From NCBI GenBank assembly GCA_963761825.1, contig CAVXIH010000009.1:542632-606631 (forward strand): DNA of 64,000 nt, given 5' to 3'. The DNA comes from an uncultured Acidobacteriota bacterium (GTDB lineage: Bacteria > Acidobacteriota > UBA6911). The notes beneath the pieces were generated by a model. That model was given only the letters and a program-made list of their open reading frames with translations, was not told where the DNA came from and searched no databases. Made by a program: the position numbers and the translations under genes. Positions 952 through 63,838 of this stretch are shown one piece after another (the first letter of the stretch is position 1; each line of letters starts with the position of its first letter).

Positions 952-993
952 GGTCGGAATCGGTATCGCTATCGCTATCGTATCGGTATCGGC
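952..993. repeat. GATACCG-unit intergenic repeat, copy A of 3
   Basis: ggtcggaatcggtatcgctatcgctatcgtatcggtatcggc. The same unit family recurs at 41288-41450 and 63718-63838. Confidence 0.5.
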
Positions 994-1137
994 TTTTAGC
1001 CGTCATTTGCAGCTATCTCCAAAAACCATTCCCGGAAACTCCTTAGTCCCATCCTTTTCGCTTGAGTTTTAGATCATCCGGACGGAAACTTTTAGCCTTT
1101 GGAGCAATCTATTATTTTCATGAAAAGGAGAATTTCG

Positions 1138-1794
1138 ATGCGTTTGAAAACACTGGTCTTGATGGTGATGGTTTCGATGTTTATGGCCGCGGTTGCCGGA
1201 TCGGCCATAGCGCAAGTCAACATGGATAAACTGATGAACCCCGCTCAATTGAACGAGACAGCCCCGGATAAATATAAAGTCAAATTTGACACTTCCAAGG
1301 GCGAATTTATGGTCGAGGTCACACGGGCCTGGGCGCCCAATGGAGCCGATCGCTTCTATAATCTGGTAAAAAATGGATTTTACGACAACTGCAAGTTCTT
1401 TAGGAATATAGAGGGCTTCATGGTGCAGTTCGGGATTAACGGCAATCCGAAGATAAACGCCGGAATGATGAAAGCCCGGATTAAAGACGACCCCGTCACA
1501 CAATCCAACAAGAGAGGATATATCACGTTCGCCATGGCCGGACCGAACACGCGTACGTCCCAGCTGTTTATCAACTTCGGAGACAATTCGAATCTGGACG
1601 CACAGGGATTCTCACCCTTTGGCAAAGTGACCAAGGGCATGAATGTAGTCGAATCGCTGTATAGCCAGTATGGCGGCAAGCCCAGCGATGCCCAGCAGCA
1701 AATCCAGATGGAAGGCAATGCGTTCCTGGAAAAGAATTATCCAAAGCTTGATTTCATCAAGACGGCGACTATCGTTCCTGCCGAAGAAAAATAG
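1138..1794 (+). CDS. peptidyl-prolyl cis-trans isomerase, cyclophilin type, secreted
   Basis: AAGGAG RBS 7 nt upstream of ATG 1138. Signal peptide MRLKTLVLMVMVSMFMAAVAGSAIA. Cyclophilin motifs FFRNIEGFMVQFG and FAMAGPNTRTSQLFINF. Confidence 0.8.
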   Translation: MRLKTLVLMVMVSMFMAAVAGSAIAQVNMDKLMNPAQLNETAPDKYKVKFDTSKGEFMVEVTRAWAPNGADRFYNLVKNGFYDNCKFFRNIEGFMVQFGINGNPKINAGMMKARIKDDPVTQSNKRGYITFAMAGPNTRTSQLFINFGDNSNLDAQGFSPFGKVTKGMNVVESLYSQYGGKPSDAQQQIQMEGNAFLEKNYPKLDFIKTATIVPAEEK

Positions 1795-1902
1795 ATCCAA
1801 CCAACATCCGGGACTTGGAGTCTTAGAGTAAACCGCACTTCTTATAACTCTAAGACTCCAAGCCTCAAACAAACCCGCCCCCAACATACAATGTACAATT
1901 AT

Positions 1903-1929
1903 GGTGACAGTCACCATAACCTCGAAATT
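1903..1929 (+). repeat. REP element, 27-nt family ggtgacagtcaccataacctcgaaatt, copy 1
   Basis: Contains the perfect palindrome GGTGACaGTCACC. Exact copy of the units flanking the RAYT gene at 17805. Confidence 0.7.
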
Positions 1930-1947
1930 TCCGCCTGGTGGTATTTC

Positions 1948-1974
1948 GGTGACAGTCACCATAACCTCGAAATT
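1948..1974 (+). repeat. REP element, same family, copy 2 (tandem with copy 1)
   Basis: Exact 27-nt repeat. The spacer tccgcctggtggtatttc is also found next to the copy at 18493. Confidence 0.7.
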
Positions 1975-2097
1975 CACTCCTATGAAAACAAAGGGTTTAT
2001 AGTGAGTGCCTCTATCCCATATTGGGGGCGTCTATAAACCTGTATTTATGCTAATTTATTCTTTTTATTAAGTTTATGCGAATTCATAGCCTAACGG

Positions 2098-2130
2098 AAT
2101 TTCGAGGTTATGGTGACTGTCACCGAAATT
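2098..2130 (-). repeat. REP element, same family, inverted copy
   Basis: aatttcgaggttatggtgactgtcaccgaaatt is the reverse complement of the REP unit. Together with 1903-1974 it forms an inverted cluster in the 5' region of the E1-alpha gene. Confidence 0.7.
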
Positions 2131-2150
2131 ACTTGCATCCTCCGGTGGCA

Positions 2151-3185
2151 ATGGCCTATAAACCCCACGTTGCCCGGCAGGGCTGCCATAATCTCAATGC
2201 TTTGGATGGGAGGTATCCCTTGGAATTGGATAAAAAGACGCTGATTGATTTATACACCACGATGTTGACCATTCGGCGCTTCGAGGAGCGGGCATACCAC
2301 GAGTTCTATACCGGGAACCTATTCGGCTTCGTCCACTCCTATATCGGCCAGGAAGCGATCGCCACCGGGGTGTGCGCACACTTGACCAAAGAAGACCGCA
2401 TCGTCAGCAATCACCGGGGACACGGTCACTGCATCGCCAAGGGTGCGGATATGAAGAAGATGATGGCCGAGATCTACGGCAAGAAGACCGGCTACTGCAA
2501 GGGCAAGGGCGGCTCCATGCACATCGCGGACTTCAGCATCGGCATGCTGGGAGCGGACGGCATTGTCGGAGCCGGGCTTCCGATCGCCAGCGGCGCGGCG
2601 TTCGCCGCTCAGCTCGAAAAAAAAGGCACCATCGCAGCCGTGTTCTTCGGCGACGGAGCCTGCAATGAAGGGGAATTCCACGAAGCACTCAATCTGGCTG
2701 GAATCTGGAAACTGCCGTTGCTCTTCGTGTGCGAAAATAATCAGTACGGGGTGAATACACCGGCAAGCTACGCAATGTCGGCAAAAGACATCACCCGAAT
2801 ACCGGAAGCGTATCACATCAAGAACAATGTCATTTACGGCAACGACGTCGAGACTGTCTACCAGGCGGCGGAAGAAGCCATCGCCATTCTTAGAAGAGGG
2901 GAGGGCCCTTACTTTCTGGAATGCCAGACCTACCGCTGGCATAAGCATTTCCTTTCCAAGGCGCTTGAAGATCTGCGCCCTGCAGAAGAACTTGAGGCAT
3001 GGAAGAAGAAATGCCCCGTGGCGGCATTCGAAACAAAATTGCTTCGCCAGGGAATTTTGACGCCTCCCGATGTTCAATCCATCAACGAAAAGATTATGGC
3101 GCAGATTGAGGAGGCGTGCAGGTTCGCCGTCGACAGCCCTTACCCTCAACCCCAGGATGCCCTGGAAGACGTGTACTCAGCCTGA
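2151..3185 (+). CDS. TPP-dependent 2-oxoacid (pyruvate/acetoin) dehydrogenase E1 component, alpha subunit
   Basis: MLTIRRFEERAY, YIGQEAIATG, GDGACNEGEFHEALNLA and NNQYG motifs typical of E1-alpha. Start chosen downstream of the REP (ORF track opens at 2076). Confidence 0.75.
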   Translation: MAYKPHVARQGCHNLNALDGRYPLELDKKTLIDLYTTMLTIRRFEERAYHEFYTGNLFGFVHSYIGQEAIATGVCAHLTKEDRIVSNHRGHGHCIAKGADMKKMMAEIYGKKTGYCKGKGGSMHIADFSIGMLGADGIVGAGLPIASGAAFAAQLEKKGTIAAVFFGDGACNEGEFHEALNLAGIWKLPLLFVCENNQYGVNTPASYAMSAKDITRIPEAYHIKNNVIYGNDVETVYQAAEEAIAILRRGEGPYFLECQTYRWHKHFLSKALEDLRPAEELEAWKKKCPVAAFETKLLRQGILTPPDVQSINEKIMAQIEEACRFAVDSPYPQPQDALEDVYSA

Positions 3186-3248
3186 TGGCAAAAGGATTTC
3201 ACCTGGGTGGGCCGTCCCCGAATCGGCCGGCAGGTGCGGGAGATACAG

Positions 3249-4205
3249 ATGAGAGAAATCACATACGAGCAGGCAACTCTGGAAGCGATTCAGGAGGAAT
3301 TCCGCAGAAACCCCAAAACGGTCCACATGTCCACGGATCTTCCGGCCGAGTTGCAGCGGGAGTTCGGTGCGGACAGGATACGCGTCACGCCGATTGCCGA
3401 AAATAATTTTGTTGGCGCATCGATAGGCCTGGCCGGATCAGGCTTCAGAACCGTCGCCAATATTCGCATGGCAACCTTCGGCTTTGTCGCGCTGGACCAG
3501 TTTATGAATCATGCCGCAAAAATCACCTACATGTTCGGCGGCCAGGCGAAGTTTCCAATTTTATACCGGATGACCGTGGGCGCCGGAATCTCCGCGGCTG
3601 CGGAGCATTCGATCAGCCCCTACTCCATGTACATGAACGTGCCGGGACTGAAGATCATTCTGCCGACGACTCCGTACGACGCAAAGGGTTTGCTCAAAAC
3701 CGCCCTAAGAGATAACAATCCTGTGATCTCCTTTGAACACGTGCTGCTGGGGGGGATGAAGGGCGAAGTGCCGGAAGAGGAATATTTCGTCCCTTTCGGC
3801 CAGGCCAAGATACGGAAGGAAGGCACGGATGTGACCGTGGTCGCTTTTGCCAAGATGGTGTATGACGCGCTGGAAGCCGCCGTCGATCTGGCAAAGGAGG
3901 GAATTTCGCTCGAAGTCATCGATCCGAGAACACTCGCCCCGCTGGACCGCGAGACCATTCTTCAATCCACCCGAAAGACCGGTCGCCTGGTAGTCGTGGA
4001 CGAAGCCTGTCAAACCTGCGGCGTTGCGGCCGAAATCATTGCCTCAGTAACTGCCGACAACGATACTTTCAGCAAATTGAAGGCTCATCCGGCGAGGGTC
4101 TGCGGGCTGGACATTCCTATTCCCTTCAGCCCGCCGATGGAAAAATTTGCTATCCCGGACAAAGCCAAAATCGTAAAGGCTGTAAAAGAAGTGATGGGCT
4201 GTTAG
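3249..4205 (+). CDS. 2-oxoacid dehydrogenase E1 component, beta subunit (transketolase-like)
   Basis: MREITYEQATLEAIQEEFRRNPKTVHMSTDL N-terminus and a transketolase C-terminal domain. No E2/E3 genes adjacent. Confidence 0.75.
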   Translation: MREITYEQATLEAIQEEFRRNPKTVHMSTDLPAELQREFGADRIRVTPIAENNFVGASIGLAGSGFRTVANIRMATFGFVALDQFMNHAAKITYMFGGQAKFPILYRMTVGAGISAAAEHSISPYSMYMNVPGLKIILPTTPYDAKGLLKTALRDNNPVISFEHVLLGGMKGEVPEEEYFVPFGQAKIRKEGTDVTVVAFAKMVYDALEAAVDLAKEGISLEVIDPRTLAPLDRETILQSTRKTGRLVVVDEACQTCGVAAEIIASVTADNDTFSKLKAHPARVCGLDIPIPFSPPMEKFAIPDKAKIVKAVKEVMGC

Positions 4206-4290
4206 AAAAGCAATCGGCAAGTTTTTCCTCATGTGAGTCGGGGCTTCAGCCTCGACCCACATGAAGAATTAGAAGAAGAAACTACGCTAC

Positions 4291-4959
4291 TCACACTTTG
4301 TGCTCTTTGCGGACGACTTTGCGGGCGCCGCTGTACCACGCCGAACTCCAGTCCTTGGGAGGGACAACTTCCTCGAGACGATCAAGCTGACCGATGTTTT
4401 TCAGCCTTTCATAGATGAGCTGCCAGGCACATGGCCGGTCTGAATCCACCTCGCACCGGTGCTCCAGCGAACCGCCGCAGGGTCCGTTCAACAGCCGTTT
4501 CGCGCATCGCGTCACGGGGCAAATCCCGCCGAATTGCGCCAGCATGCAGTCCCCGCAACCAAGACACTTTTCCGTCCAGACGGCCTGATCTTCCAGAACT
4601 CCCAGAAATTGCGTGTTCAGTCCGGCATACACCGGCTTGTCCGGAAAACGCTCCGCAATGGCCTGCACGCCCGCGCCGCATCCGAATGAAACAATTGCTT
4701 CGACCTTGGACGCCGGTTCGGCCAGATCCTTCAGGAATTCGTTTTCGCACTGCCGCTCGATAGTGATTTGAGTGATTTCGATGGGATTGCGGTCGAGCTT
4801 GCGCGCCATGCGGACCGCATAGGAGCTGATGCTGACTTCGCGCTCGCCGCCCGCGAGACAGACCGTCACGCACGTGCCGCATCCCACAAAAAGGACCTTT
4901 TTGTGTTGGGTAATTATGGATTTCAGTTCTGTGATGGATTTCGGTGAAGCAACGATCAT
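4291..4959 (-). CDS. metV: MetV, methylenetetrahydrofolate reductase C-terminal-domain zinc-ribbon protein
   Basis: Cys motifs GCGTCV, GCGAG, CLGCGDC and CAKRLLNGPCGG. 55-60% identical paralog at 48367-49038. Confidence 0.7.
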   Translation of the reverse strand: MIVASPKSITELKSIITQHKKVLFVGCGTCVTVCLAGGEREVSISSYAVRMARKLDRNPIEITQITIERQCENEFLKDLAEPASKVEAIVSFGCGAGVQAIAERFPDKPVYAGLNTQFLGVLEDQAVWTEKCLGCGDCMLAQFGGICPVTRCAKRLLNGPCGGSLEHRCEVDSDRPCAWQLIYERLKNIGQLDRLEEVVPPKDWSSAWYSGARKVVRKEHKV

Positions 4960-8400: not shown

Positions 8401-9972
8401 CGGGACGCGGCTCCATGCCGATCCGGGAGGAGTTCGCTGCACGCCCGACAGCCACGAGGATCGTGTCGGTCTTGATAGAAGAGATTTGGGAATCGTCGAA
8501 CAGGGGATTGTAGCGTTTAAATCCTCTGTACACATCGAACACACTCGTGCAGGCGCGGAAAGTCACCGAAGAAACACGTTCGTGCTCCGCCTCTATTCTG
8601 GTTGGGCTTAAACCATTGTGGATTTCCACGCCTTCTTCAACAGCCTGGGCAACCCGCTCCGGAAGAGCGGACATTTCGGATCGGCTCTCCATGCAGGCGA
8701 GGTGCACGGACTTCACGCCCGGCAATCGCAGCGCTGTGCGCGCGGCATCCAAAGCAGGATCGGAACTGCCGATGCACCAGGACGCTGGGACCGATTTCGG
8801 GGAGCATTGCCGGAATTTGCCTCGCAAAGGAAATTTAATCCGTCCAGCACACCCTGCGCATCCTCGCCGGGAATTCCCAGTTTGCGATTCTCCCAGGCGC
8901 CGGTGGCGACAAAAACCGCATGAAACCCTTCCGCCGTTGCGGAGCTTCCGCTCGATTGCGGGTCGGACCGGAGAAGGTTCTTCGGTGCAGCCACTGTGGT
9001 GCCGGTTTTTACTTCCACTCCCAGGCTGATGATCGCCTGAATTTCCTTGTCGAGGACTTCTTTAGGCAGGCGGTACGCAGGGATGCCGTATCGGAGCATT
9101 CCACCCAGCTGCGGCTTCGCTTCAAACAGCGTCACACTATAGCCCATCAGCGTCAGATCGGTTGCCGCCGTCAATCCGGCAGGACCTCCGCCTATGACGG
9201 CGACTTTTTCTTCCAATGAAACGGGCGCAGGCGAAAACGCCGGGACAGGATTCGAATGAATGAAGTCACCGACAAACCGTTCCAGGTGGCCGAAATATAC
9301 GGCTTCATCGACCGCTGCGCGATTGCAGTGGTTCTGGCAGGGGTGCGGACAGACGCGTCCGCAGGAAGCCGGAATCGGGCAGCGCTGACGGATGAGCTCA
9401 TACGCTTCCGGAATTTTGCCCGCGGAAATAAGGGCTACCGCGCCCGGCACATTGATGCCCGCCGGACAAGCGGCTTTGCACGGGGCAGTCCCGGAGGCTT
9501 TGGAAATACTGTATGCGCTGGGAATCGCCTGAGGATACAGTTGAAAAATCGCCTTGCGCGAACTTAAGCCGCGGTCAAATTCGCTTGGAAGGTTGACAGG
9601 GCAGACGGCGGCGCAATCGCCGCAGGCCTCGCATTTTTTAATATCGACATAGCGCGGATTCTGGCGAATCTTGACTTTGAAACGCCCCGGCTGGCCGGAG
9701 ACATCCTGGATATCCGCCAGCGTGATAATTTCTATGTTCCTGTTCCGGGCGCACTCCACCAATTTGGGCGAGAGAATGCACATCGCGCAGTCGCCGGTTG
9801 GAAAAGTTTTATCGAGCTGCGCCATGCGTCCGCCAATCGCCGCGGCGGCATCCAGCAGGTAGACCTTGAAACCGCTCCCTGCAAGGTCAAGGGAAGCCTG
9901 AACTCCGGCAATCCCTCCTCCGCAAACCAGCACTGCCCCTATATTGTCGTTCTCTATCATTGTCATAACCAA
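5453..9972 (-). CDS. hdrA: HdrA-like megafusion: HdrA N-terminal FAD and ferredoxin, GltD/NfnB-like NAD(P)H-flavin oxidoreductase, then a complete second HdrA module. Disrupted by 3 frameshifts.
   Basis: Pieces are ORFs 8713-9972, 8141-8827, 6300-8180 and 5453-6445, all collinear with the plus-strand paralog at 43223-47717. Motifs GGGIAG, CEACGDC, GltD-type AVIGGGPAG and IFAGGD, HdrA CVGSRD...CSSVCC, FVCQCG...CSWVH, and C-terminal CVACATC...CVGCGSCAAACP. One shift was traced to a single extra G at about 6500. Confidence 0.75.
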
Positions 9973-9973
9973 T

Positions 9974-10004
9974 TTCAGATTCCAGATTCCAAATTCCAGA
10001 TTCG
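9974..10004. repeat. AGATTCC heptamer tandem array (intergenic)
   Basis: tttcagattccagattccaaattccagattcg lies between gltB1-B3 and hdrA. The same unit is repeated at 61131-61160. Confidence 0.5.
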
Positions 10005-10013
10005 CATCTCGAA

Positions 10014-18524: not shown

Positions 18525-18560
18525 ACCACCAGGCGGAATTTGAGAGGGGGTTAGAGGAGG

Positions 18561-20369
18561 TTAGAGGAGGTTGTAGTGGCTCAGCTTTTTTCTTAGGGTA
18601 ACGCGACTCATTGCCAGCAGGTCTGCCAGTTCGCGCTGGCTGTATTGGTTGGAATCCAAAAGGTAGCGCAGAAGCGTTTCCTCCACCGATTCCAGCAGCG
18701 CATCACGAATACCGGAAGTATCATTGCGGGAAACCAGGAAGCGGACGACCGCCTGGCGAAGTTCGGACTGTGGGTCCGCAACTTTTTCGGCATCGGGATT
18801 GGTCAGAAAATCTGGTCGGCCTTCCCTTATTTCCTCGGGTATCAGTTCAAGGGACACGGTATTGTCGGGGCTCATGACCACTGCCCTTTCAATGCAGTTT
18901 TCCAGTTCCCGTACATTTCCCGGCCACGAATGCGCCAGCAATGCGTCCAGCACTTCACGCGGCACCTGCGTAACCTGGCGATTTGCCTCGCGATTGTACT
19001 TTTCAAGAAAGTTATCCACCAGAAGCGGAATATCCTCGCGGCGATCGCGGAGCGGAGGCAGATGAATAGGGATGACGTTCAGCCGGTAGAACAGATCCTG
19101 GCGAAATCGTCCGGCCCGTATCTCCGCTCGCAGGTCCCGTCCGGTCGCGGCCACGATTCGGACATCCACCGTTATGGTTTTGCTCGATCCCACAGGTTCC
19201 AATTGATGTTCCTGCAGCACGCGCAGGAGCTTAACCTGAAGGCGCGGACTCATTTCGCTCACTTCATCGAGGAAGAGAGTCCCGCCTTCGGCCGTACGGA
19301 AGCGCCCTTCGTAATCGCGCACAGCCCCGGTAAAAGCGCCCTTCACATGACCGAACAGCTCTGTTTCAAGCAGGGTTTCCGGAAGCGCGCCGCAGTTTAC
19401 CTTAACGAGCGGACCCGCAGCTCGGTCGCTGTTATAATGCACGACATTCGCGATGAGTTCCTTGCCCGTGCCCGTCTCCCCTGTAATAAGGACCGACGAA
19501 CGCGAACGGGCGGCAGTCGCCGCCAATCCCAGCAGGCGCCGGATAGCCGCGCTTCCCCCTACGATGCTGTCGACTCGGTAGGTCCGCCGCAGTTCCTCGC
19601 CTCGCCGTGTCATCCGGTCGAGGTCCCGTTCTTTCCCCGCCTCGCGTTCCTGAACAGCGACTCCCTCATCCAAATCCAGAGCCTGCGGCGTCCCGATCGC
19701 GGCACTGCGCCCGGCGGCTTTGTGTATCGTAAGCGCCCTCTGCCCGTTGGACAGGGACACCTCGATGACAACCTGCGTAATGTGCCGCACTTTCGCCAGG
19801 AAAACTTCCGTGTGTGCTTCGGTTTCGATAAGCCAATACGCAAGGGTGGAAAGGTCATAGAGACGAGGGCACAAGTGCCCGAACAGTCGCGCGACCCGAT
19901 TCTCATCGCCCCAAAGATCCAGCATTCCGGTAAGCGAATCAAAAACATAGTTTGCCGACTGGCCTCCGCGCGTGCCAACTTCGATCAGAGCCTGCTCCAA
20001 CCGTGAGGGATCCGACGGGTCGGCAATATGGACCGGCGCATGCACTGCGTTGCGCGCAGGGTCATCAAAAAATTTGAGAAACATCTCGTCGGAATTTCCT
20101 TTGCCCGAGGAGAAGCAGTCGATAAGCGAAAACCGTCCGGGAGACATGAGCCTGGCGTACTTGGACGCTATGGTTTGAGGCGAACGGTTGAAGCTCACGT
20201 AAACAACCGGAATCCCACCCTGCTCGCAGGATTGAACAAAACTGGAGATGAAATGATCGCCGGCCACGCCGGAGTCGATTTCCCACACCAGATTATCCCC
20301 GGTGATCACTCCGCCAATCGCTTTGTCCACTTCGGGTATGCCCGTAGTGGGCTTATATCGAAATGCCAT
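18561..20369 (-). CDS. sigma-54-dependent transcriptional activator (bEBP) with N-terminal degenerate KaiC/RecA-like domain and C-terminal Fis-type HTH
   Basis: AAA+ sigma-54 interaction domain with GETGTGKE, GAFTGA and the LQVKLLRVLQE arginine-finger region. C-terminal HTH RELADLLAMSRVTLRKKL. N-terminal TGIPEVDKAIGGVITGDNLVWEIDSG resembles KaiC/RadA but has no Walker-A GKT. Confidence 0.8.
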   Translation of the reverse strand: MAFRYKPTTGIPEVDKAIGGVITGDNLVWEIDSGVAGDHFISSFVQSCEQGGIPVVYVSFNRSPQTIASKYARLMSPGRFSLIDCFSSGKGNSDEMFLKFFDDPARNAVHAPVHIADPSDPSRLEQALIEVGTRGGQSANYVFDSLTGMLDLWGDENRVARLFGHLCPRLYDLSTLAYWLIETEAHTEVFLAKVRHITQVVIEVSLSNGQRALTIHKAAGRSAAIGTPQALDLDEGVAVQEREAGKERDLDRMTRRGEELRRTYRVDSIVGGSAAIRRLLGLAATAARSRSSVLITGETGTGKELIANVVHYNSDRAAGPLVKVNCGALPETLLETELFGHVKGAFTGAVRDYEGRFRTAEGGTLFLDEVSEMSPRLQVKLLRVLQEHQLEPVGSSKTITVDVRIVAATGRDLRAEIRAGRFRQDLFYRLNVIPIHLPPLRDRREDIPLLVDNFLEKYNREANRQVTQVPREVLDALLAHSWPGNVRELENCIERAVVMSPDNTVSLELIPEEIREGRPDFLTNPDAEKVADPQSELRQAVVRFLVSRNDTSGIRDALLESVEETLLRYLLDSNQYSQRELADLLAMSRVTLRKKLSHYNLL

Positions 20370-22044: not shown

Positions 22045-22729
22045 AATTCTCGTAATTGACGATGAGCCTCAAATTCGGCGTCTCATGCGCACAACGCTGA
22101 TCAGCGCCGGATATGAAGTGGACGATGCCAGAACGGGAGAAGAGGGACTTGAAAAAATAGGCGAGTATCATCCGGATCTGGTATTGCTTGATATTAACAT
22201 GCCCGGAATGGGTGGTTTGGCAACCTGCGAAGCTCTCCGGGCAGACAAAAACATAGCCATTATCATGCTCACCGTCCGCGATTCTGAAGCGGATAAGGTT
22301 GCCGCACTGGATGCGGGCGCCGATGATTTCGTCACGAAACCATTCAGCACGCCGGAGCTTTTGGCGCGAATACGTGCAGCCCTCCGGCGAGTGCCGGTCT
22401 CGCAGGCGTCCCCCGCGAGAATTCAGATCGGCAGTCTCGTCATCGACTTCGTAGCCCGGACCGTCTCAAAAGGCGACAAACCGACACACCTGACACCCAA
22501 AGAGCTGGAATTGCTTCGCTACCTTTCCCAGCATGCGAATCAGGTAGTTTCCCACCGCGAATTGCTGCAGGCCATTTGGGGCCCGGATTACGGCAACCAG
22601 GTCGATTACCTTCGAGTATTCATTAAAAACCTGCGCAAGAAAATAGAGTTGAATCCCGATCACCCTGAATACATCACGACCGAGCCTTGGGTCGGATATC
22701 GATTCAACGGCCTTCCGGAATCTTTATGA
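22016..22729 (+). CDS. kdpE: KdpE OmpR-family response regulator
   Basis: Receiver RILVIDDEPQIRRL...LLDINMPGMGG plus winged-helix output domain. Overlaps the kinase stop. Confidence 0.8.
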   Translation: MEEKPLSAGRILVIDDEPQIRRLMRTTLISAGYEVDDARTGEEGLEKIGEYHPDLVLLDINMPGMGGLATCEALRADKNIAIIMLTVRDSEADKVAALDAGADDFVTKPFSTPELLARIRAALRRVPVSQASPARIQIGSLVIDFVARTVSKGDKPTHLTPKELELLRYLSQHANQVVSHRELLQAIWGPDYGNQVDYLRVFIKNLRKKIELNPDHPEYITTEPWVGYRFNGLPESL

Positions 22730-22807
22730 TTTCTTCATTAATTTTCCATCATTTCTTTATGTCATCTCCATGATTTCTTTAGCTCGCCCGGCGTATGCTT
22801 TTACGCC

Positions 22808-37347: not shown

Positions 37348-37527
37348 TGTTCCCCATCTGTCGCTCCTTGCTCCTTTTTCATGCGAAAACATACCGAATT
37401 TGGATTGCGGCTGCTAGTATAGCAGCTGTCGGCCGTCAGCCGTCAGCTGTCAGCAATATTTTTATGAGGGAAAACAGTCCAAAATATAACGCCGACTAAC
37501 GACTGCCGACCCAAAAGAGAGGTTCTT

Positions 37528-39337: not shown

Positions 39338-39403
39338 GGCCACAGATTCCACTGATTTCACAGATTATATTTTTTTTCTGTGAAATCAGTGAAATCTGTG
39401 GCC
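39338..39403. terminator. rho-independent terminator hairpin
   Basis: ggccacagattccactgatttcacag / ctgtgaaatcagtgaaatctgtggcc with a T8 run, downstream of typA. Confidence 0.6.
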
Positions 39404-39412: not shown

Positions 39413-41206
39413 TTACCGTTGGTGAACCGAGAGCGCTTTTTTGCGGAGGCGGATGGATTTTGGGGTTACTTCGACCAGTTCATCGTCATTAATGATTTCG
39501 AGCGCCTGTTCGAGAGAAAGATCCCTGAACGGCACGAGCCGGATTGCCTCGTCGGCACTTGAGGCTCGCATATTGGTCTGCTTTTTCTCTTTGGTTACAT
39601 TGACATCCAGATCGACGGCCCGCGCGTTTTCCCCGATAATCATCCCTTCATAGACTTCGGTTCCCGGACGGACAAAGAGCTCTCCGCGTTCCTGAAGATT
39701 GTACAGCGCATAGCTGGTAGTCGATCCCGCTCTGTCCGCTACCATGGCCCCGGTCAACCTGTTGGTTATATCCCCTGCCCAGGCCCCCCAGCGCAAAAAC
39801 ATGGAGTTCAACAATCCCGTCCCTTTTGTGCTGGTCAAAAACTCGGAGCGAAATCCGATCAGGCCTCTCGAAGGAACTTCAAAATCCATCCGAACGCGAC
39901 CCGCGCCATGATCCACAATCCTGGTCATCTTGCCCTTGCGTCGTCCCAAGGCTTCCGTAATAACACCGATGAAATTGTCAGGGCAATCGATGATAACCTG
40001 TTCAATCGGCTCCATGAGGTTTCCGTCAATGGTGCGTGTAATGACGTGCGGCTTGGAAACCTGCATTTCGAAATCCTCGCGGCGCATCATTTCAATCAGG
40101 ATGCCCAGCTGGAGCTCTCCGCGCCCGGAAACCTTGAAGCTGTCCATCTCGTCGGTCTCCTCAATGCGAATTGCCACATTGGCGAGCGCTTCCTTTTCGA
40201 GGCGCGCTCTGAGATGCCGCGAAGTCACATATTTCCCGTCCCGCCCGGACAAGGGAGAAGTATTGGGGTGAAAAATCATCGATATGGTCGGCTCGTCGAC
40301 CTGGATGGTCGGCAGCCGGATGGGATCTTCCTCATCCGCAACGGTTTCTCCTATGTAGATGCCTTCGATGCCGGCCAGGGCGATGATTTCGCCGGCGCTT
40401 GCTTCGGGGACGGGCTGCTGCTTCAATCCTTCAAACGTAAACAGCTTGGTAATCCGTGTCTTTTCGATGGAGCCGTCCAGTTTGCATACGGATACATTTT
40501 GTCCGACTGCCACTTTGCCGGAAAAAATCCTGCCAATCGCGATTCGCCCGACATAGTCGTTGTATTCGAGCGTGGTGACCAGGACCTGAAGCTTGTCGGG
40601 AAGGATCGGCTCCGGCGCCGGAATGGTTTCCAGGATCTGCTCGAACAGGGGCCGCAGGTCTTCTGAGCCATCGTTGAGTTCCTTTTTGGCAATCCCAAAT
40701 TTGCTGACCGCATACAGGATCGGGAAATTGATGAGGTCTTCGCCCGCATCCAGATCTATAAAGAGATCGTAGATCTCATTCACGACCTCCTGAGGCCGCG
40801 CGTCGGACCGGTCGATTTTGTTGACGACGACGATCGCAGGGAGCTTCTGCTCCAGCGCTTTTCGGAGCACGAACCGGGTCTGAGGCAGCGGGCCTTCCGA
40901 AGCATCCACCAGGAGCATCACGCCGTCGACCATTTTCAGCACGCGCTCGACTTCACCTCCGAAATCGGAATGACCCGGCGTATCCACGATATTGATTTTG
41001 ACCGACTTATAGTGGATGGCGGTGTTCTTTGCCATGATGGTGATGCCGCGCTCCCGCTCGAGGTCCATGTTGTCCATAACCCGTTCCGTCAATCGTTCGT
41101 TCTCGCGAAAGGTGCCGCTCTGTCTAAGCATGGCATCCACCAGCGTCGTCTTCCCGTGGTCGACGTGCGCGATGATGGCAATATTCCGAATATCTTCTCT
41201 TTTCAT
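39413..41206 (-). CDS. typA: TypA/BipA translational GTPase
   Basis: [28 protein letters not shown], and full EF-G-like domain order. 597 aa, intact. Confidence 0.9.
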
Positions 41207-41287
41207 GAATCCTCGTCAAAATGGAGTATAAACATACGCCCAATATGCCAATACTCCAAGGATGAAGGTGTATTTGCGGATGAGCGC

Positions 41288-41450
41288 CGACGTCAAGCCC
41301 ATCGGAATCGGTATCGGAATCGGTATCGGAATCGGGTATCGGGTATCGGTTTTGGTTTTCGGCCATCGAAAAGAAAAGCCGATTGCGATTGCGATTATCG
41401 ATACCGATTCCGATAGCGATAGCGATTCCGAAGCGATAAGGCACAGCCAT
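41288..41450. repeat. GATACCG-unit long imperfect hairpin repeat, copy B
   Basis: Left arm ggaatcggtatcggaatcggtatcggaatcgggtatcgggtatcgg, centre ttttggttttcggccatcgaaaagaaaagcc, right arm cgataccgattccgatagcgatagcgattccgaagcgat. Lies in the typA / hdrC divergent intergenic region. Confidence 0.55.
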
Positions 41451-41710
41451 CTCTATGTGTCAAGATTGCATGGGAGCAGGCACTCTCCGCGCTCTATAAA
41501 CAGCTTGCCAATCGGGCCCTTTCCGTTTAAATTTAGGGTGGTATTAATAGCGGTTTTTGGGGTTAAGTTACGTAGGATGTGTGGCTTTATGAGTACGGTA
41601 GTGCCGCAAAGAAGTCGGGGTTGGTGAACAACATTGAATTTTCCGCCGCAACCAATACCCCTGCGGACTATCTCTGGAAAATCCTCCCGACCAAGAATTG
41701 GAGCAAAGGA

Positions 41711-47800: not shown

Positions 47801-48353
47801 ATGGAAGCGATACAACAATCGGTACAGGAAAACGTGCAACCGGCGGGCTTTGAACCGGAAATCGTGGCTTTCTGTTGCGAGTTTTGAGCGTACAGCGCTG
47901 CGGACCTGGCAGGTTCGATGAGGCTCAATTACCCGACATTCATTAAAGATCGTTAAAGTGCCCTGTACGGGAAGAGTGGATGTACTAACCATCCTCAAGG
48001 CTTTTGAATCCGGAGTGGATGGGGTATATCTCGCGGGATGCCTGGAAGGAGAATGCCATTTCCTAAAAGGCAATCTCAGGGCCAGGAAAAGAGTGAATTA
48101 TGCCAAGACGCTATTGAAGGAAGTGGGGATAGAACCGGAGCGGCTGGAAATGTACAACATGAGTTCCGCTCAGGGACAGCGATTTGCCGCTATCGCCAAT
48201 GAAATGACGGAAAAGATCCGCGCTCTGGGGCCAAGCCCCATAAAAAAGGCAAAGGAACATTCAAAGCATAAGAGCGAGTTTCCCGTTTCCCGTTCCCCAT
48301 TATCCGGGGCTTTCAACGGGAAACCGGAAACGGGAAACGGGAACACAAGGTAA
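47801..48353 (+). CDS. mvhD: MvhD family protein with in-frame TGA (candidate selenocysteine) at 47885-47887 and one +1 frameshift at about 47948
   Basis: MEAIQQSVQENVQPAGFEPEIVAFCCEF-TGA-AYSAADLAGSMRLNYPTFIK / IVKVPCTGRVD...GCLEGECHF. Aligns residue for residue with MvhD at 4956-5456, where the TGA position is Cys (FCCSYCAFSAAALAG). Confidence 0.7.
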
Positions 48354-49038: not shown

Positions 49039-49137
49039 GAAGCATTTATACGATTGACGATTGACGATTGACGATTGCCGTGAGATCGTCAATCGTAAAT
49101 CGTCAATCGTCAATTTCTTAATGGAGGATTTGAGACG

Positions 49138-50146: not shown

Positions 50147-50546
50147 GGCGCGAATTCTTGTTATTGATGATGACTTGCACATGAGGACCGCCTGCGCGCG
50201 CGTGCTCGCAAAGGCCGGGCATACGGTCACATGCGCCGAAACCGGCAATGAGGGACTCAAGATGCTCGGCAGCAGCGCAGCCGGGTTCGAGGTGGTTCTG
50301 CTGGACCAGCTGATGCCCGGCATGAGCGGCATGGAAACGCTGGCAGGGATCAAGGTCATGGCGCCGGACCTTCCGGTCATCATTATCACAGGTTCGGTCT
50401 CCGACGAAACCTCGGCAGAGCTCGTTGACCGGGGTGCCTGTGATTGCCTGCCCAAGCCCTTCAACCCCGAACAACTCCGCACGGCCGTCGAAAAAGCCCG
50501 AAAAGGGAGTCGTCTAGTAAAATACGCCACGGATTCCACGGATTAA
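50145..50546 (+). CDS. single-domain CheY-like response regulator receiver protein
   Basis: ILVIDDD...VLLDQLMPGMSG...LPKPF. ATG abuts the terminator T-run with no SD. Confidence 0.65.
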   Translation: MARILVIDDDLHMRTACARVLAKAGHTVTCAETGNEGLKMLGSSAAGFEVVLLDQLMPGMSGMETLAGIKVMAPDLPVIIITGSVSDETSAELVDRGACDCLPKPFNPEQLRTAVEKARKGSRLVKYATDSTD

Positions 50547-50598
50547 CACAGATTGAAAATTTCGGAGATCTGTAAAATCCGTGGAATCCGTGGCGTAT
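50521..50598 (+). terminator. perfect 24-bp inverted repeat with T-rich tail, overlapping the receiver gene stop
   Basis: aatacgccacggattccacggatt ... aatccgtggaatccgtggcgtatt, then ttgtttggg. Confidence 0.55.
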
Positions 50599-50666
50599 TT
50601 TGTTTGGGAATTCGATGACTGTGCGCGGGTTTTGTATTAGTCTTTGGTGACATTTATGGAGATTGA

Positions 50667-54373: not shown

Positions 54374-54396
54374 CCATCAGGCAGAAAACGTGGAAA

Positions 54397-55790: not shown

Positions 55791-55854
55791 GGTTCACCTC
55801 GTTTCATATAACTAATGGCGAACTCATGGAATGAGCCAAAATATATTTATAAAT

Positions 55855-55913: not shown

Positions 55914-56047
55914 TTACTGTCCAGGGTTGCTGCTGGTGTTGCTGGTTATGTTGCTGCTATATTTCTTTCCCGTGTACGTTAACGGGATGCTATAGTACCT
56001 CGCATTTAGCGGATTACAGGCAAAGCGGTTCATCCCGGAGGTTTATA

Positions 56048-58426: not shown

Positions 58427-59535
58427 AACGTGCCGGGATTCACCAGATTGCCGAGCTGGCCGGAGTTTCGATCGGCACCGTCGATAGAGCACTGCACGGC
58501 CGCCCTGGTATCCGCGAGACCACCAGGAAGCGAGTACTTCGCATCGCGAAGAAGCTTTCCTACACGCCGCACCTGGCAGCCCGCATCCTCTCCGCGCGCC
58601 GCGCGGACTTGCGCATCGGCGTCTGCATTCCCGAAGAAATTCATTTTTTCTATGACCAGATCCGCGCCGGGATCTACGACGAGGCGCAGCGATCCGATGG
58701 ACTGGGCGTCAGGATTACGTATCGCGCCGTTCCGGGCCTGGGCGAAGGGGAGCGCGAGCGGATTTCCGATCTACTGGCCGAAGGTGTTCATGCGCTGATC
58801 GTCACCCCGGGAAACCCGAAATCGGTTACACCGCTGATCGACAAGGCAGAGGAACGCAATGTGCGCGTCGTCTGCATCACAACGGATGCGCCGCAAAGCC
58901 GCCGCACGTCTTTCGTTGGAGTGAACCCGGAACTCAGCGGCAGGCTCGCGGCCGAACTCATGTCCAAGTTTGTGCCGCACGGATCTGAGGTGGCCGTCAT
59001 CACTGGCATGCTGACAACTGAGGAACACCGTCGAAAAAGCGAAGGATTCCAATCCGGCTTCCGGAAAGACTGCCGCGGCGGCAAAATCGCCGCAGTCCTC
59101 GAAGCGCACGAATCCGAAGAGGAGAGCTACCGGAAGACCTGCCGGCTCATCGCCGACCATCCGGATTTGCAGGGCATTTACGTGAGCACTGTCAACTGTC
59201 TGCCCGTTTGCCGCGCGCTGAAGGACAACAAAAGAGCGGGCCACATACAGCTCATCACCACGGATCTTTTTCCCGAGATGGCGCCCTATTTCAAGCGCGG
59301 AACGATTCGGGCCTCGATTTATCAGGACCCCTATCTTCAGGGCAAGACCGCCGTGCGGGCACTCACGGATTTTCTATTGAATAGGACGGAGATCCCCAGG
59401 ATACAGTTCCTGAACCCGGGGATCGTATTGCGTACGAATCTCGCACTATTTCGCGAATCGTCGAAACAAAGGATCAAAGGATATCAAAGGGGTAAAGGAG
59501 TAAAGGGGCAAAGGGAAAGAGGGAAAGGCGGATAG
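58423..59535 (+). CDS. LacI-family transcriptional regulator (true stop probably about 59460; ORF tail runs into the AAAGGAT repeat)
   Basis: HTH IAELAGVSIGTVDRALHGRPGIRETTRKRV and periplasmic-binding-fold effector domain. Last ~25 codons (KGYQRGKGVKGQRERGKGG) are repeat-encoded. Confidence 0.7.
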   Translation: MKRAGIHQIAELAGVSIGTVDRALHGRPGIRETTRKRVLRIAKKLSYTPHLAARILSARRADLRIGVCIPEEIHFFYDQIRAGIYDEAQRSDGLGVRITYRAVPGLGEGERERISDLLAEGVHALIVTPGNPKSVTPLIDKAEERNVRVVCITTDAPQSRRTSFVGVNPELSGRLAAELMSKFVPHGSEVAVITGMLTTEEHRRKSEGFQSGFRKDCRGGKIAAVLEAHESEEESYRKTCRLIADHPDLQGIYVSTVNCLPVCRALKDNKRAGHIQLITTDLFPEMAPYFKRGTIRASIYQDPYLQGKTAVRALTDFLLNRTEIPRIQFLNPGIVLRTNLALFRESSKQRIKGYQRGKGVKGQRERGKGG

Positions 59536-59627
59536 AGGATAGTGGGATGAAGAGGAACGGGGATAGCGGTTCTTTCCCCTTTAATCCTTTAATCCTTTAA
59601 TCCTTTAATCCTTGATTCCTTTGGTCC
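59464..59627. repeat. AAAGGAT / TAATCCT heptamer arrays forming a long imperfect hairpin
   Basis: caaaggatcaaaggatatcaaagggg... opposite cccctttaatcctttaatcctttaatcctttaatccttgattcctttgg, immediately upstream of uxaC. Confidence 0.55.
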
Positions 59628-59639
59628 TGAGGAGCAAAC

Positions 59640-61056
59640 ATGAACCGAAAACTCAACCTACATCAAGACCGTCTCTTCCCGGCAGATGCGACGCAACGGG
59701 CGATTGCACGGCGGCTCTATGAGGAAGTGCGCGGGCTGCCGATTATCAGCCCGCACGGGCATACGGATCCGCAATGGTTTGCGGACAACAAACCATTCCC
59801 TGACCCGGCGACGCTGCTGGTCATTCCGGATCACTATGTCTATCGGATGCTGTACAGCCAGGGAGTTTCACTGGAATCGCTGGGTATCCCGAGGATGGAT
59901 GAAGGGCCGGTTGAGAAGGATTCCCGCAAGATCTGGCGGCTTGTTTGCGCAGCACTGGTATCTCTTTCGCGGCACACCCACACAGATGTGGTTCCAACAT
60001 GTGCTGCACGAAGTGTTCGGGATCCGGGAACGGTTGACTCCGGAATCTGCCGAAAGAATCTATGACGCTATCGCGGACTGTCTCTCGCGGCCGGAGTTTC
60101 TGCCGCGGGCTTTGTACGAGCGCTTCAACATCGAGGTGCTGTCTACGACCGAGTCGCCGCTCGATCCGCTGGTGCATCATCAGAAACTGCGCGCGTCAGG
60201 ATGGAAAGGACGTATCGTTCCGACATATCGCCCCGACCCGGTGGTGGATCCGGAATTCGCCGGCTTTGCGAACAATGTTCTGAAACTCGGCGAGATGACG
60301 GGAGAGGACACGGCTACGTGGTCCGGATATCTGCGGGCCTTATCGAATCGCCGCCGGTTTTTCGCTGCGCAGGGCGCGACTGCAACCGATCACGGCCACT
60401 CTTCCGCAATTACCTATGACCTGCCGCGTTCGCGATGCGAGGCTTTGCTGGCCAAAGCTTGCGCGGGAAACATCACTTCCATGGAGGCTCAGGAATTTCG
60501 CGGGCAGATGCTGAGCGAAATGGCGCAGATGAGCCTCGAGGATGGCCTGGTGATGCAGATCCATCCCGGGGCTTATCGCAACCATAATCCTTCCGTCTTC
60601 GGCGCGTTCGGTCTCGATAAGGGCTGCGACATTCCGATGCGCACGGATTATGTGCATGATCTCAAACCGCTGCTCGATCGCTTCGGGAACGAAAAGCGGC
60701 TAACCATCATTCTTTTTACGCTGGATGAATCGACGTACTCGCGCGAACTTGCTCCGCTGGCCGGCCACTATCCGGCTCTGAAGCTGGGTCCGGCATGGTG
60801 GTTTTACGATAGTCCTGAAGGCATGCGGTTTTACCGCGAGCGGGTGACTGAAACGGCCGGATTTTACAACACGGTCGGGTTTAACGACGACACGCGGGCA
60901 TTCCCGTCTATTCCTGCGCGGCACGACGTCGCGCGGCGCGTGGACTGCGCTTTCCTCGCGCGGCTGGTGGCCGAACATCGCCTCGATGAAGATGAAGCGC
61001 GCGAAGTGGCAATCGATCTCGCATACAGGCTGGCCAAACAGGCATACCGGATCTGA
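59640..61056 (+). CDS. uxaC: glucuronate isomerase UxaC (one frameshift at about 59940)
   Basis: IISPHGHTDPQWFADN N-terminus in the 59640 frame. Remainder in the 59686-61056 frame (WYLFRGTPTQMWF, LTIILFTLDE, GFNDDTRAF). Confidence 0.8.
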
Positions 61057-61130
61057 TGGCAAGCATGGTCCGCACTTCTCGCGGCATTTTTAGCGAAGCG
61101 GCGCAGATGGGCGTGGATATAATTGATACT

Positions 61131-61207
61131 GGATTCCAGATTCCAGATTCCAGATATCAGGTTGCAGGACGCTAGCTGTCGTTAATCCGGAATTTGGAAT
61201 CTGAATT
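61131..61207. repeat. AGATTCC heptamer tandem array with downstream inverted partner
   Basis: ggattccagattccagattccagatatcag ... ccggaatttggaatctgaatt. Same unit as at 9974-10004. Confidence 0.5.
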
Positions 61208-61225
61208 AACCTGCAAGGAAGACAT

Positions 61226-62506
61226 ATGTCTGATGCTTTTAAAATAAAAAATTTGCGATGGTGGATCGCAATCCTGCTCATGGGCATCACCACCATCAAT
61301 TATCTTGACCGCATCACGCTCTCGGTCGCGGCGCCAGAATTCAAGAAGAGCCTGGGCATTGGCGAGGTGGATTATTCCCAATCGTCATGGCGTTCCAGTT
61401 GGCTTATCTGATCATGATGCCGGTTGTAGGACGATTCATCGATTGGCTGGGATTAAGAGCTGGGATTCACACTCTCGATAATTACGTGGTCCATCGCTCA
61501 GATGATTACCGCACTCGCCACTGGATGGCGCTCGTTTGCCGTATTTCGTTCACTGCTTGGCATCACCGAGGCCGGCAATTTCCCGGGCGGTGCGAAAGCA
61601 GTCGCTGAATGGTTCCGGCCAAAAGAAAGGACTCTCGCCACAGGGATCTTCAATATGGGCGCAGGGATTGGGGCACTTATCGCTCCGCCGCTGGTTGCCT
61701 TCCTGATCCTGAAGTACAACTGGCAGACTGCCTTTGTTGTAACCGGTGCTTTCGGCCTGTTCTGGGCGATCCTGTGGGCGTGGCTGTATCGGTCTCCTGA
61801 AAAGCATCCGTGGCTTTCAAAAGAAGAGCTGTCGCATATCAGGGAAGGAGAGCAAGAGCTCGCCACAGTAAAAGCGCCCAAAGGGAAAGGTGTTTGGAAA
61901 ATTGTTTTGCCGCAGAGAAACTTCTGGGCTCTGGGAATCGCGCGATTTTTTTCCGAACCGGCCTGGCAGTTTTTCAGCTACTGGATCCCGCTCTATCTGG
62001 CCACCGAGCGGAATATGAATCTGAAGCAGATCGGATATTTTGCATGGCTTCCTTTCCTGGCAGCGGACCTCGGCTCCATGTTCGGAGGTGTGCTGTCGCC
62101 GTTTTTCATTAATAAAATGCGCATGTCCGTTCTGACGGCGCGCAAGTGCGCCGCCACCGTGAGCGCTTTCTTGATGGTATTTGCGGTTTTCATCGGCAGA
62201 GCGCCTTCGCCTGGATGGGCCATATTCTTTTTCTGCATAGGCACATTTGCCCACCAGTCCATGTCCGCCACGCTGATGACTTTGCCGGCGGACCTCTTCC
62301 CGAAAACGACGGTCGCCACAGCGAACGGCTTGTCAGGCACTACAGCCGTGCTCGGTGGAATGATATTTACAGCGATTGTGGGGATTGTTGCCCAGACCAT
62401 CGGCTATGGTCCATTGTTTACGGCTATCGCTTTTCTTGACATTATCGGCGTCGCATTTCTGTGGTCGTTGCTGCGCGAGCCCAAACATTTCGCTGAGGGG
62501 AAGTAA
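61226..62506 (+). CDS. MFS transporter, hexuronate/anion:cation symporter (ExuT-like), 2-3 frameshifts
   Basis: LRWWIAILLMGITTINYLDRITLSVAAPE N-terminus, then 61387-61608 and 61502-62506 frames carry GITEAGNFPGGAKAVAEWF and the C-terminal 6 TM helices. Confidence 0.65.
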
Positions 62507-62546
62507 CTCAAGATTTCGAATCTCGAATCCCGAAGGAGCATGTTAG

Positions 62547-63702
62547 ATGCGGTTCAAGACACTGCCGATTTTCCTGGCCTTTTTTCTCATGGGGCTCGCC
62601 GATGCAATGGGACCCATGTCGGATGGGGTGAAAAAGCAGTATGAGCTGAGCAACCTGGTGGCGACGCTACTGCCGTTTTTCGTCTTCATCGCTTTCGCCA
62701 TTTTCAGCATCCCCGGAGGGCTTCTGGCGGCGCGCATCGGCAAGAAGAAACTGCTGCTCCTGGGGCTTGGGCTCAACGCGGCTGCACTGCTGGTGCCATC
62801 GCTTCAAATGCCGAGTTTTGCGCTTCTGCTTGCGTGCATCTTTCTCCTCGGCGTCGGCACGACGCTTCCTTCAGGTAGCCGGCAATCCCATCATGCGCGA
62901 TGTGAGTCCGGAGGGCGCCTATAGCCGGAATCTCAGCTTTGCCCAGGGCATCAAAGGTATCGGCAGCACGCTGTCAACCTATCTGATCAGTGCGCTGGCC
63001 GGCCTTGCTGTTTTCCAGGGCTTGGGATGGCGCGGCGCATTCCCGCTGTTTTTCGTGCTCATGGCTCTGGCCTTCCTGTCGGTTGCATCGTTGAAGATTG
63101 AGGAGACCAAGGCGGACAAGCCTCCCAGCCTCGCATCCAGTCTCAGGCTGCTAAAAGAGCCCATTTTCCTTCTCGCCGTGGTCGGCATTTTCCTTTATGT
63201 CGGCGCCGAGTCCTGCATGTCGCGTTTTCTCAATCCCACGCTGCAGGCTTTTGGCATGGATGCTCAAGCTGCCAACAAATGGGGACCGACTCTCTTCTTT
63301 TTAATGCTCACTATCGGCCGGCTTTTGGGTGGTGCAATTCTCACCATCATGAGCCCGCGCAACTGTTTTCGTCTCTCGGCACTGCTGGGAGTCTTGGGCG
63401 CGGGCTCTCTCATGACGGGAGCAGCCGGCGTGGCGATTCCGGCTATCATTGCCGCGGGTCTGGGTTTTGCCAATATCTGGCCCATGCTCTTTTCAATCAC
63501 AATCGAAAATAAACCGGAATGCGCAAACGAGCTCAGCGGCCTGATGTGCATGGCCATCTCCGGCGGTGCGCTTGTGCCTTTGCTCATGGGGTGGCTGGTG
63601 GATATGGATTGGAAGGCAACAGCCTTCATCGTGCCCTTGGCTTGCTTTGTGTATCTGCTGCTGCTTTCGCTAAAGGGAGAGCAGCGGCCTACAATGGTTT
63701 AA
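62547..63702 (+). CDS. MFS transporter (sugar permease-like), one frameshift at about 62900
   Basis: Two frames (62547-62924, 62767-63702). 12 predicted TM helices. Confidence 0.55.
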
Positions 63703-63717
63703 TAAAAAAGAGTGTGG

Positions 63718-63838
63718 TTTAGGCCTGACAAGTCGGCATCGGAATCGCTATCGGGATCGGTATCGGCTTTTCAGATCGAGGATCGATTTCCGAGATTCGA
63801 TACCGATAGCGATAGCGATTCCGATACCGACCTTATTG
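63718..63838. repeat. GATACCG-unit hairpin repeat, copy C
   Basis: gtcggcatcggaatcgctatcgggatcggtatcggc ... tcgataccgatagcgatagcgattccgataccgacc (arms are reverse complements). Confidence 0.55.

Follow-up and report, generated by a model that had tools for sequence, protein, structure and literature searches.

The window analysed here is a stretch of 64,000 nucleotides from an uncultured Acidobacteriota bacterium of the UBA6911 lineage (contig CAVXIH010000009.1, positions 542,632 to 606,631). Homologues of its TypA likewise assign it to a metagenome-assembled genome of an Acidobacteriota bacterium. It carries three intergenic sites, A, B and C, that share a 6-nt unit consisting of an invariant ATCG and two variable bases. 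Their identity as palindromic microsatellites is well supported, and we infer that slippage drives the changes in their unit number. The fuller reading, in which such microsatellites act, if they act at all, as stem-loops in transcripts in the manner of repetitive extragenic palindromic (REP) elements, has in our view an even chance of being correct. The sites do not appear to move about this genome: inheritance is in place, with changes in the number of units and the occasional gain or loss of a whole element. Many repeat-armed hairpins are found in this Acidobacteriota lineage, and the hexamer is one of their unit types.

Three intergenic sites with an ATCG unit

A preliminary description of this DNA had reported a family of palindromic repeats in three intergenic regions. 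Tandem Repeats Finder (TRF), a search for inverted repeats and a degenerate sequence pattern all locate the sites there, and both their intergenic position and their relationship by unit type are upheld. The 16-nt pattern ATCGGNATCGGNATCG, with at most one mismatch, matches the window 15 times, and every match falls within A, B or C. The expectation from dinucleotide-preserving shuffles is 0.14 matches, and 0 of 100 shuffles reach 15. The parts of the three sites are as follows.

953-992, + strand: site A, a single hexamer array with no inverted partner (TRF 954-992, period 6, 6.7 copies)
41301-41350, + strand: site B, 5' arm, (ATCGGA/ATCGGT)x6 and then two 7-nt units ATCGGGT (TRF, inverted repeat, fold)
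41351-41379, + strand: site B, centre, with a small stem of its own (ttttcggccatcgaaaa) (fold)
41380-41431, + strand: site B, 3' arm, CGATTG x2, CGATTAT, CGATAC CGATTC CGATAG CGATAG CGATTC CGA (TRF, inverted repeat, fold)
63732-63765, + strand: site C, 5' arm, GTCGGC ATCGGA ATCGCT ATCGGG ATCGGT ATCG (inverted repeat, fold)
63766-63797, + strand: site C, centre, 32 nt (inverted repeat, fold)
63798-63831, + strand: site C, 3' arm, CGATAC CGATAG CGATAG CGATTC CGATAC CGAC (inverted repeat, fold)

Sites B and C form long hairpins on both strands, with stems of 34-40 bp. Their RNA folding energies are -72.2/-60.8 kcal/mol for B and -64.4/-68.5 kcal/mol for C (z from -6.4 to -9.9), and the energies of the DNA folds are -44.2 (z -7.5) and -36.8 (z -6.8), respectively. 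The inverted-repeat arms of B are 40 nt long and 80% complementary, with about 8 + 8.5 units by TRF. Those of C are 34 nt each and 91% complementary, with 5.7 + 5.5 units. Reverse-complementary arms around a centre, as first described for B and C, are confirmed, the centres being about 30 nt long. The same cannot be said of the palindromic character attributed to all three sites, which holds for B and C and fails for A. The units of A read, in order, TCGGAA TCGGTA TCGCTA TCGCTA TCGTA TCGGTA TCGG, and the array folds no better than shuffled sequence (z -0.8 and +0.4), although a small GGCTTTTAGCC hairpin follows it.

Pfam assignments of the neighbouring genes place two of the copies between divergent genes, in agreement with the preliminary description: A lies between a ZIP gene (- strand) and a cyclophilin gene (+ strand), and B between typA (- strand) and an hdrC-like ferredoxin gene (+ strand). 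Site A is about 30 nt upstream of a promoter-like sequence, TTGACA-16-GAAAAT (922-895, minus strand), that points toward the ZIP gene. Site C lies 30 nt past the stop of an MFS permease gene and 49 nt ahead of the next gene, which is truncated by the end of the window and whose orthologue from related contigs has a ROK domain. A 13-mer adjoining site C (TTGGATTGCGGCT, 63836-63848) recurs at 37400-37412 beside a CAGCCGT heptamer array (37423-37454), perhaps by chance (blastn-short E = 0.1).

Several simpler identities were rejected. The sites had been judged not to be simple terminators, and a canonical intrinsic terminator is indeed excluded by the absence of a T-tract; the terminator scan found none at C and none inside the B element. 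No known RNA family was matched: Rfam at gathering thresholds gave 0 matches in the window, and its E-value mode gave merely generic long-hairpin matches to eukaryotic miRNA precursor models, far under threshold. A coding repeat was rejected as well. The elements lie between genes and both arms cannot code; the four open reading frames (ORFs) that cross the arrays (667..999, 40970..41416, 41124..41450 and 41262..41627) are short and spurious, as had been suspected. G-quadruplex formation is unavailable to the copies in the window, where units such as GGAATC, GGTATC and GCTATC prevail and GGG is confined to two units of B and a single unit of C.

Change at orthologous loci

The comparison of orthologous loci suggested in the preliminary description divided the sites. 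Site B is kept with differing unit number, A is present or absent, and the slot of C holds a hairpin of another unit. The hexamer hairpin of B occurs at the same position of the hdrC-typA spacer in related contigs whose TypA is 98% (L240) and 95% (L239) identical, with unit numbers that differ from those of the window and a shorter centre. It is elaborated in L243 (TypA 94%), where one 5' arm is followed by four 3'-type arrays with a repeated mini-hairpin between them, and it is reduced to a remnant in L244/L245 (TypA 92%). No site B element was found in L246 (TypA 89%), where synteny is broken. As an observation in its own right, the four (CCCGAC/CCCGAT)n arrays of L243 (9440-9720) and the repeated 27-nt mini-hairpin (tcgaaaagtggacacccacttctttcga) make up a tandem module of about 50 nt. 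The unit number of B is different in every orthologue, and the arm proximal to typA is the best-conserved part of the spacer in the three closest genomes. The inner units of B, ATCGCA x2 in one arm and CCGATAC x2 in the other, are not complementary at their variable bases, which points to independent slippage or expansion in each arm. In site C and in L240, by comparison, the outer core variants are matched between arms (GTCGG with CCGAC).

At site C, the window has 177 nt between the MFS and ROK genes, where relatives have 73-77 nt, and the surrounding spacer is unalignable. Where the MFS protein is 96% identical (L371/L372), the slot is filled by a GATTCCT 7-mer hairpin instead of the hexamer hairpin; at 86% identity (L373/L374) it is filled by a CACGAAANA 9-mer hairpin.

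Site A is polymorphic as part of a larger segment.

947-1025, + strand, 79 nt: segment present or absent between strains, consisting of array A, GGCTTTTAGCC and about 33 nt of unique sequence

This segment is bounded by a 3-nt direct repeat, CCA (947-949 and 1026-1028). One related contig (L367), with a ZIP protein 99% identical to that of the window, carries a shorter site A of 4 units. Another (L368), whose ZIP protein is the same as that of L367, lacks the whole segment and has CCA at the junction. The more distant L369/L370 (ZIP 87%), an outgroup, also lack it.

[quoted passage not shown] The hairpin would be recognised by a transposase encoded elsewhere and would spread by intergenic insertion. 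We consider this quite improbable. The discrete 79-nt segment with direct repeats at its flanks favours it, as do the unrelated hairpins in the slot of C in close relatives and the unalignable spacer around them. In addition, IS110-type elements target palindromic repeats, and an IS110-family pair (DEDD_Tnp_IS110 and Transposase_20, L240:7462-8623) lies 3 kb downstream of typA in L240. The insertion sequences ISGme8 and ISGme9 lie at a fixed distance from similar arrays in Geobacter metallireducens (PMC2700814). The filled and empty versions of A, however, amount to one pair of sequences and a 3-nt repeat that microhomology deletion would explain equally well. Site B has descended vertically across relatives with 92-98% identical TypA, and no transposase is linked to A, B or C within the window. 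Moreover, the three sites have no termini or body in common beyond GGTATCGGCTTTT and no conserved loop, and the same is true of the elements of different genomes, whose loops and flanks are unrelated. Between the flanks and loops of A, B and C, blastn-short found a single shared stretch, the 14-mer GGTATCGGCTTTTn, common to A and C. The MITE named in the preliminary description is not borne out by these observations.

Hairpins with other repeat units

Among the inverted repeats of the window, hairpins with arms of short tandem repeats predominate, and their units differ from the hexamer. At least six further hairpins have tandem-repeat arms of 7-, 8- or 9-base units. The separate family that was first proposed for the hexamer sites is not supported, as they fall within a wider class of repeat-armed hairpins. 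The other arrays and hairpins are listed below.

39338-39403, - strand: 9-mer-armed hairpin (CACAGATTT type), directly past the typA stop, preceded by an A-tract and followed by a T-tract
48278-48343, + strand: 7-mer-armed hairpin, GTTTCCC / GGGAAAC, between the FlpD and DUF5981 genes (TRF, inverted repeat)
49050-49114, + strand: 7-mer-armed hairpin, ACGATTG / CAATCGT, past the DUF5981 gene (TRF, inverted repeat)
50519-50601, + strand: 9-mer-armed hairpin (CCACGGATT x2), with 26-nt arms, 100% complementary
59467-59622, + strand: two 8-mer arrays, AAAGGGGT-type and then CCTTTAAT x5.6, that form an imperfect pair upstream of uxaC
61132-61203, + strand: 7-mer-armed hairpin, GATTCCA x3.4 / TGGAATC, between uxaC and the first MFS gene
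9972-10003, + strand: single array ATTCCAG x4.6, with no partner arm and with the unit found at 61132-61155

The hairpin after the typA stop is a bidirectional intrinsic terminator with periodic arms, since an A-tract precedes it and a T-tract follows it. It is kept at the same place in L240, L239 and L243, and in L239 the sense strand folds at -26.9 kcal/mol versus -7.9 for the antisense strand. Four genomes (the window, L239, L243 and L244/L245) also keep 7-mer hairpins in the slots on either side of the DUF5981 gene. Between the FlpD and DUF5981 genes, the GTTTCCC unit family recurs in L239 and L244/L245; past the DUF5981 gene, a hairpin is present in L239, L243 and L244/L245. Around uxaC, the upstream arrays of L373 belong to the same 8-mer family as those of the window, and the uxaC-to-MFS slot of L373 has an 8-mer (CTCAAAGA) hairpin versus the 7-mer hairpin of the window.

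These arrays matter for annotation, as they create false ORFs and can distort real ones. The FlpD frame of the window (47958-48353) passes through the hairpin at 48278-48343 and ends at 48353, which lengthens the protein by about 30 aa (...EFPVSRSPLSGAFNGKPETGNGNTR). The FlpD of relatives has 117 aa and stops just ahead of the hairpin.

Other repeats were noted in passing. The window has further short tandem arrays of AGAGGAGGTT x3 (18543-18572), a 22-mer x2.5 (22726-22781) and TCGAATC x2.7 (62516-62534), the last in a 40-nt spacer between two MFS genes. In L239 (20262-21613), at least seven hairpins of about 100-130 bp with 10/11-mer arms (ACGCAGACGG type) stand head to tail beside a PDDEXK_3 gene. 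Unrelated to the repeat-armed hairpins is a 33-nt sequence with the palindrome GGTGACAGTCACC that occurs three times in the window (1897-1929, 1943-1975 and 2097-2130), twice in direct and once in inverted orientation (100% and 94% complementary). The inverted copy lies just past position 2076, the annotated start of a gene for a dehydrogenase E1 component (PF00676), and the copies resemble an operator or a paired binding site.

Hexamer hairpins across bacteria

Bacteria represented by one genome per species were searched with a hairpin pattern of three ATCGNN units, 20-50 nt and three NNCGAT units, which matched at least 118 stretches. A five-unit pattern without the hairpin requirement was too frequent to use, owing to coding repeats. 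Among the matches listed, (ATCGNN)n...(NNCGAT)n hairpins occur in more than 10 phyla, and their carriers include Desulfobacterales, Chromatiaceae, Verrucomicrobiota, Planctomycetota, Lentisphaerota, Kiritimatiellia, Acidobacteriota, Nitrospirota, Myxococcota, Cyanobacteria, Streptomyces and others. The elements are intergenic in these genomes too, and the repeats themselves give rise to the short ORFs around them. Their median length is 84 nt, and their loops of 0-50 nt have no common motif. Of 128 elements, 1.6% have a T-rich tail versus 1.5% of controls, which is no enrichment. Genomes with hexamer elements also hold hairpins of other 6-9-nt units.

In one Desulfobacteraceae metagenome-assembled genome, S24.Bin080, a longer palindrome present in multiple copies is built around the hexamer hairpin and reads GGCATCCTTCAT-N8-GTTTACA-N9-(ATCGNN)n...(NNCGAT)n, mirrored on the other side. 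It was found at seven loci (L124, L135, L138, L141, L155, L196 and L226), and L141 alone, at 8 kb, has three such hairpins. This arrangement supports the mobile-element explanation, and the palindromes are MITE-like in that genome; hexamer hairpins may be dispersed as a unit in some genomes.

The paired arrays also have a polarity. Every paired array in 0.92 Mb of loci reads 5'-(ATCGNN)...(NNCGAT)-3', including about a dozen that lie outside the pattern selection. The opposite polarity does occur in metagenomes, where roughly 35 convincing hairpins were counted among the 120 matches listed, and a viral contig has one such pair, a terminator-like hairpin. Opposite-polarity loci contain about nine secondary elements of ATCG-first polarity, and the converse was not seen. 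ATCG-first polarity is probably the commoner one, in samples that are biased, rather than a rule. An origin from head-to-head telomeres or break repair, which a fixed polarity had suggested, was dropped because the opposite polarity also exists.

The composition of the units raises the question of whether a protein reads them. The variable dinucleotide is skewed: GG, CT, GT and AA dominate, C is rare right before ATCG and T is rare right after it. According to a protein-binding explanation, which the preliminary description had also mentioned, the periodic ATCG would be the repeated half-site of a protein that binds DNA, ssDNA or RNA, for instance a global regulator or nucleoid protein, and inversion would join two arrays. 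A fixed core with free and unmirrored variable bases is the pattern of motif recognition rather than of pairing, and the non-random choice of variable bases is consistent with it. So are the position of A just upstream of the -35 of the promoter-like ZIP site, that of B between divergent genes, and the conservation of the typA-proximal arm of B. Binding of the integration host factor (IHF) or HU type was proposed by Aklujkar et al. for analogous arrays (PMC2700814). Nevertheless, we regard this explanation as decidedly unlikely. No candidate protein is known, and a 6-bp period would put successive sites on different faces of the helix. Unit number is free to vary, and the element is absent in a strain with a 99% identical ZIP protein. 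Promoter regions are not preferred, and the slots can be filled by hairpins of unrelated units. A spread over more than 10 phyla would need a near-universal factor.

A bolder version, which we regard as a long shot, is that repeat-armed hairpins constitute a sequence-specific system shared across phyla. Their core would be recognised by a conserved RNA- or ssDNA-binding protein or by an enzyme that builds or copies the arrays, and hairpins would be installed or renewed at operon boundaries. If true, such a system would explain why sister genomes have different unit families in one slot and why unrelated phyla have the same units.

Possible mechanism and function

At B and C an array faces its own reverse complement, in the form 5'-(ATCGNN)n-centre-(NNCGAT)n-3'. 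As all units have the same core, the arms can pair whatever their register. In the proposed mechanism, units gained or lost by slipped strands in one arm or the other would therefore make the stem longer or shorter without destroying it. In a transcript, a stable hairpin without a U-tract would be expected to block 3' exonucleases, to be a likely substrate of RNase III, and to insulate neighbouring cistrons partly from each other. The clearest candidate for such a role is site C, in the spacer that separates the permease gene from the ROK gene. A transcript stem-loop is favoured, at least for site C, because short intercistronic slots keep a hairpin despite a change of unit family, and because one member of the class is a terminator. 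As this lineage keeps a hairpin in its intergenic slots while the unit changes, the class is a candidate for general operon punctuation, which would concern phyla whose terminators and REP-like elements are poorly known.

Several observations weigh against a role in transcripts, which is itself conjectural. Tandem, convergent and divergent placement of 80 elements in other genomes follows the share of intergenic bases (chi-square p = 0.18), and this even placement is fitted by neutral filler as well as by function. Sense and antisense fold energies have no consistent bias across the class. Although the two arms of one element share unit types (complementarity of the variable bases is 0.444, versus 0.309 for arms re-paired between elements; n=109 from many genomes, about 7 standard deviations), unit order is not mirrored between arms, as the value is 0.440 after the order within arms is shuffled (n=109). 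Selection for exact pairing is consequently weak at best, and the fixed ATCG core could reflect recognition by a protein instead of pairing. Site A is dispensable between strains with near-identical ZIP proteins. Since A and B lie between divergent genes and the promoter-like sites found fall outside the elements, these two may be untranscribed altogether. Site A, and possibly B too, may have no function.

The same observations bear on the possibility that the sites are a neutral by-product: microsatellites generated by slippage wherever non-coding DNA tolerates them, with inverted pairs that are merely hard to lose and with no function in RNA or DNA. This seems unlikely to us. It is kept alive by the even spread over spacer types, by the dispensability of A and by the divergent neighbours of A and B. 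The decay of B to a remnant, the unmirrored unit order and the unit numbers that vary in every orthologue of B agree with it as well. Drift, on the other hand, would be expected to leave some of the short intercistronic slots empty or lacking a hairpin, and all relatives examined have one in them, sometimes of another unit family. A terminator of working type within the class and outer core variants that are matched between arms also speak against neutrality.

Comparison with known repeat systems

REP sequences and their composites (bacterial interspersed mosaic elements, BIMEs, and REPINs) in Enterobacteria and Pseudomonas are intergenic imperfect palindromes, often past stops or between cistrons, and have been proposed to stabilise upstream mRNA as RNA stem-loops. 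The sequence of REPs is conserved and non-periodic, with a GTAG-type 5' motif, and they have a cognate REP-associated tyrosine transposase (RAYT). The preliminary description had called the sites REP-like, and this applies to B and C in the loose sense that they are intergenic palindromes. It does not extend further: their arms are periodic and made of variable units, with no conserved motif outside ATCG, and a GTAG-type motif is not evident at the ends of A, B or C.

The sites had also been thought to be possibly undescribed. A literature search with the repeat strings themselves returned nothing relevant, and the hexamer type itself appears not to have been described. Its kind, however, is already described, though poorly understood, as inverted pairs of 6-9-nt tandem repeats have been reported in Xanthomonas (PMC4692102) and G. 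metallireducens (PMC2700814). The present finding adds breadth and testable contrasts to this known kind, and no new mechanism. According to the account of Mrazek et al. 2007 given in PMC4679880, long simple sequence repeats with 5-11-nt units are intergenic, occur in many phyla and are ascribed to slippage. The TAACTGA repeats of Beggiatoaceae form arrays just upstream of start codons, with a single inverted case reported (PMC4679880). Both are mostly direct arrays, whereas inverted pairing is the main feature of the elements in the window.

One of the two closest counterparts is the heptamer repeat GGGNATC found in Xanthomonas and Nostoc (Rehm et al. 2015, PLoS One, PMC4692102). In Xanthomonas, many of the arrays come as convergent inverted pairs, 70-75 per genome, that could fold into stem-loops; the arrays are mostly intergenic and have no known function, and single arrays occur too. 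The arrays are on average 28 nt from the neighbouring 5' ORF, and divergent regions are avoided (PMC4692102). Like them, the sites of the window are tandem arrays of short units in intergenic DNA, and B and C are paired on opposite strands with the G-rich array first (convergent), while A is single. The N-ATC-G string is common to both. (GGGAATC)n reads ...ATCGGGA..., and in the window ATCGGGT is found twice in B. To judge from this, the hexamer type and the Xanthomonas heptamer look closely related. Conservation of position with varying unit number is another shared feature, found at B, with A polymorphic and the slot of C kept with a different unit family. The differences are equally clear. 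The period in the window is 6, not 7, with two free positions per unit, and the copies there lack the four or more runs of at least three G that the G-quadruplex proposed for GGGNATC would need. The hexamer elements have no context bias, and two of the three sites in the window are between divergent genes. Finally, the hexamer type occurs in Acidobacteriota and more than 10 other phyla.

The other closest counterpart, the paired sites of G. metallireducens (classes 1-3), consists of three to five tandem copies of 7-9-nt units (Aklujkar et al. 2009, PMC2700814). The pairs are on opposite strands at variable distance, intergenic and present in many copies per genome. Their function is untested; Aklujkar et al. 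guessed at binding by a global regulator (IHF/HU), and some of the arrays have ISGme8 or ISGme9 inserted at a fixed distance (PMC2700814). The sites of the window resemble these pairs as short-unit tandem arrays on opposite strands in intergenic DNA, and differ from them in their units. One related contig provides a closer match. At L240:2-97 there is a heptamer-armed hairpin with the units CAGAAGT / TTCTGAC, and its CTTCTGA reading fits the class 3 consensus MTYCTGA of G. metallireducens, so that this unit is found in two phyla.

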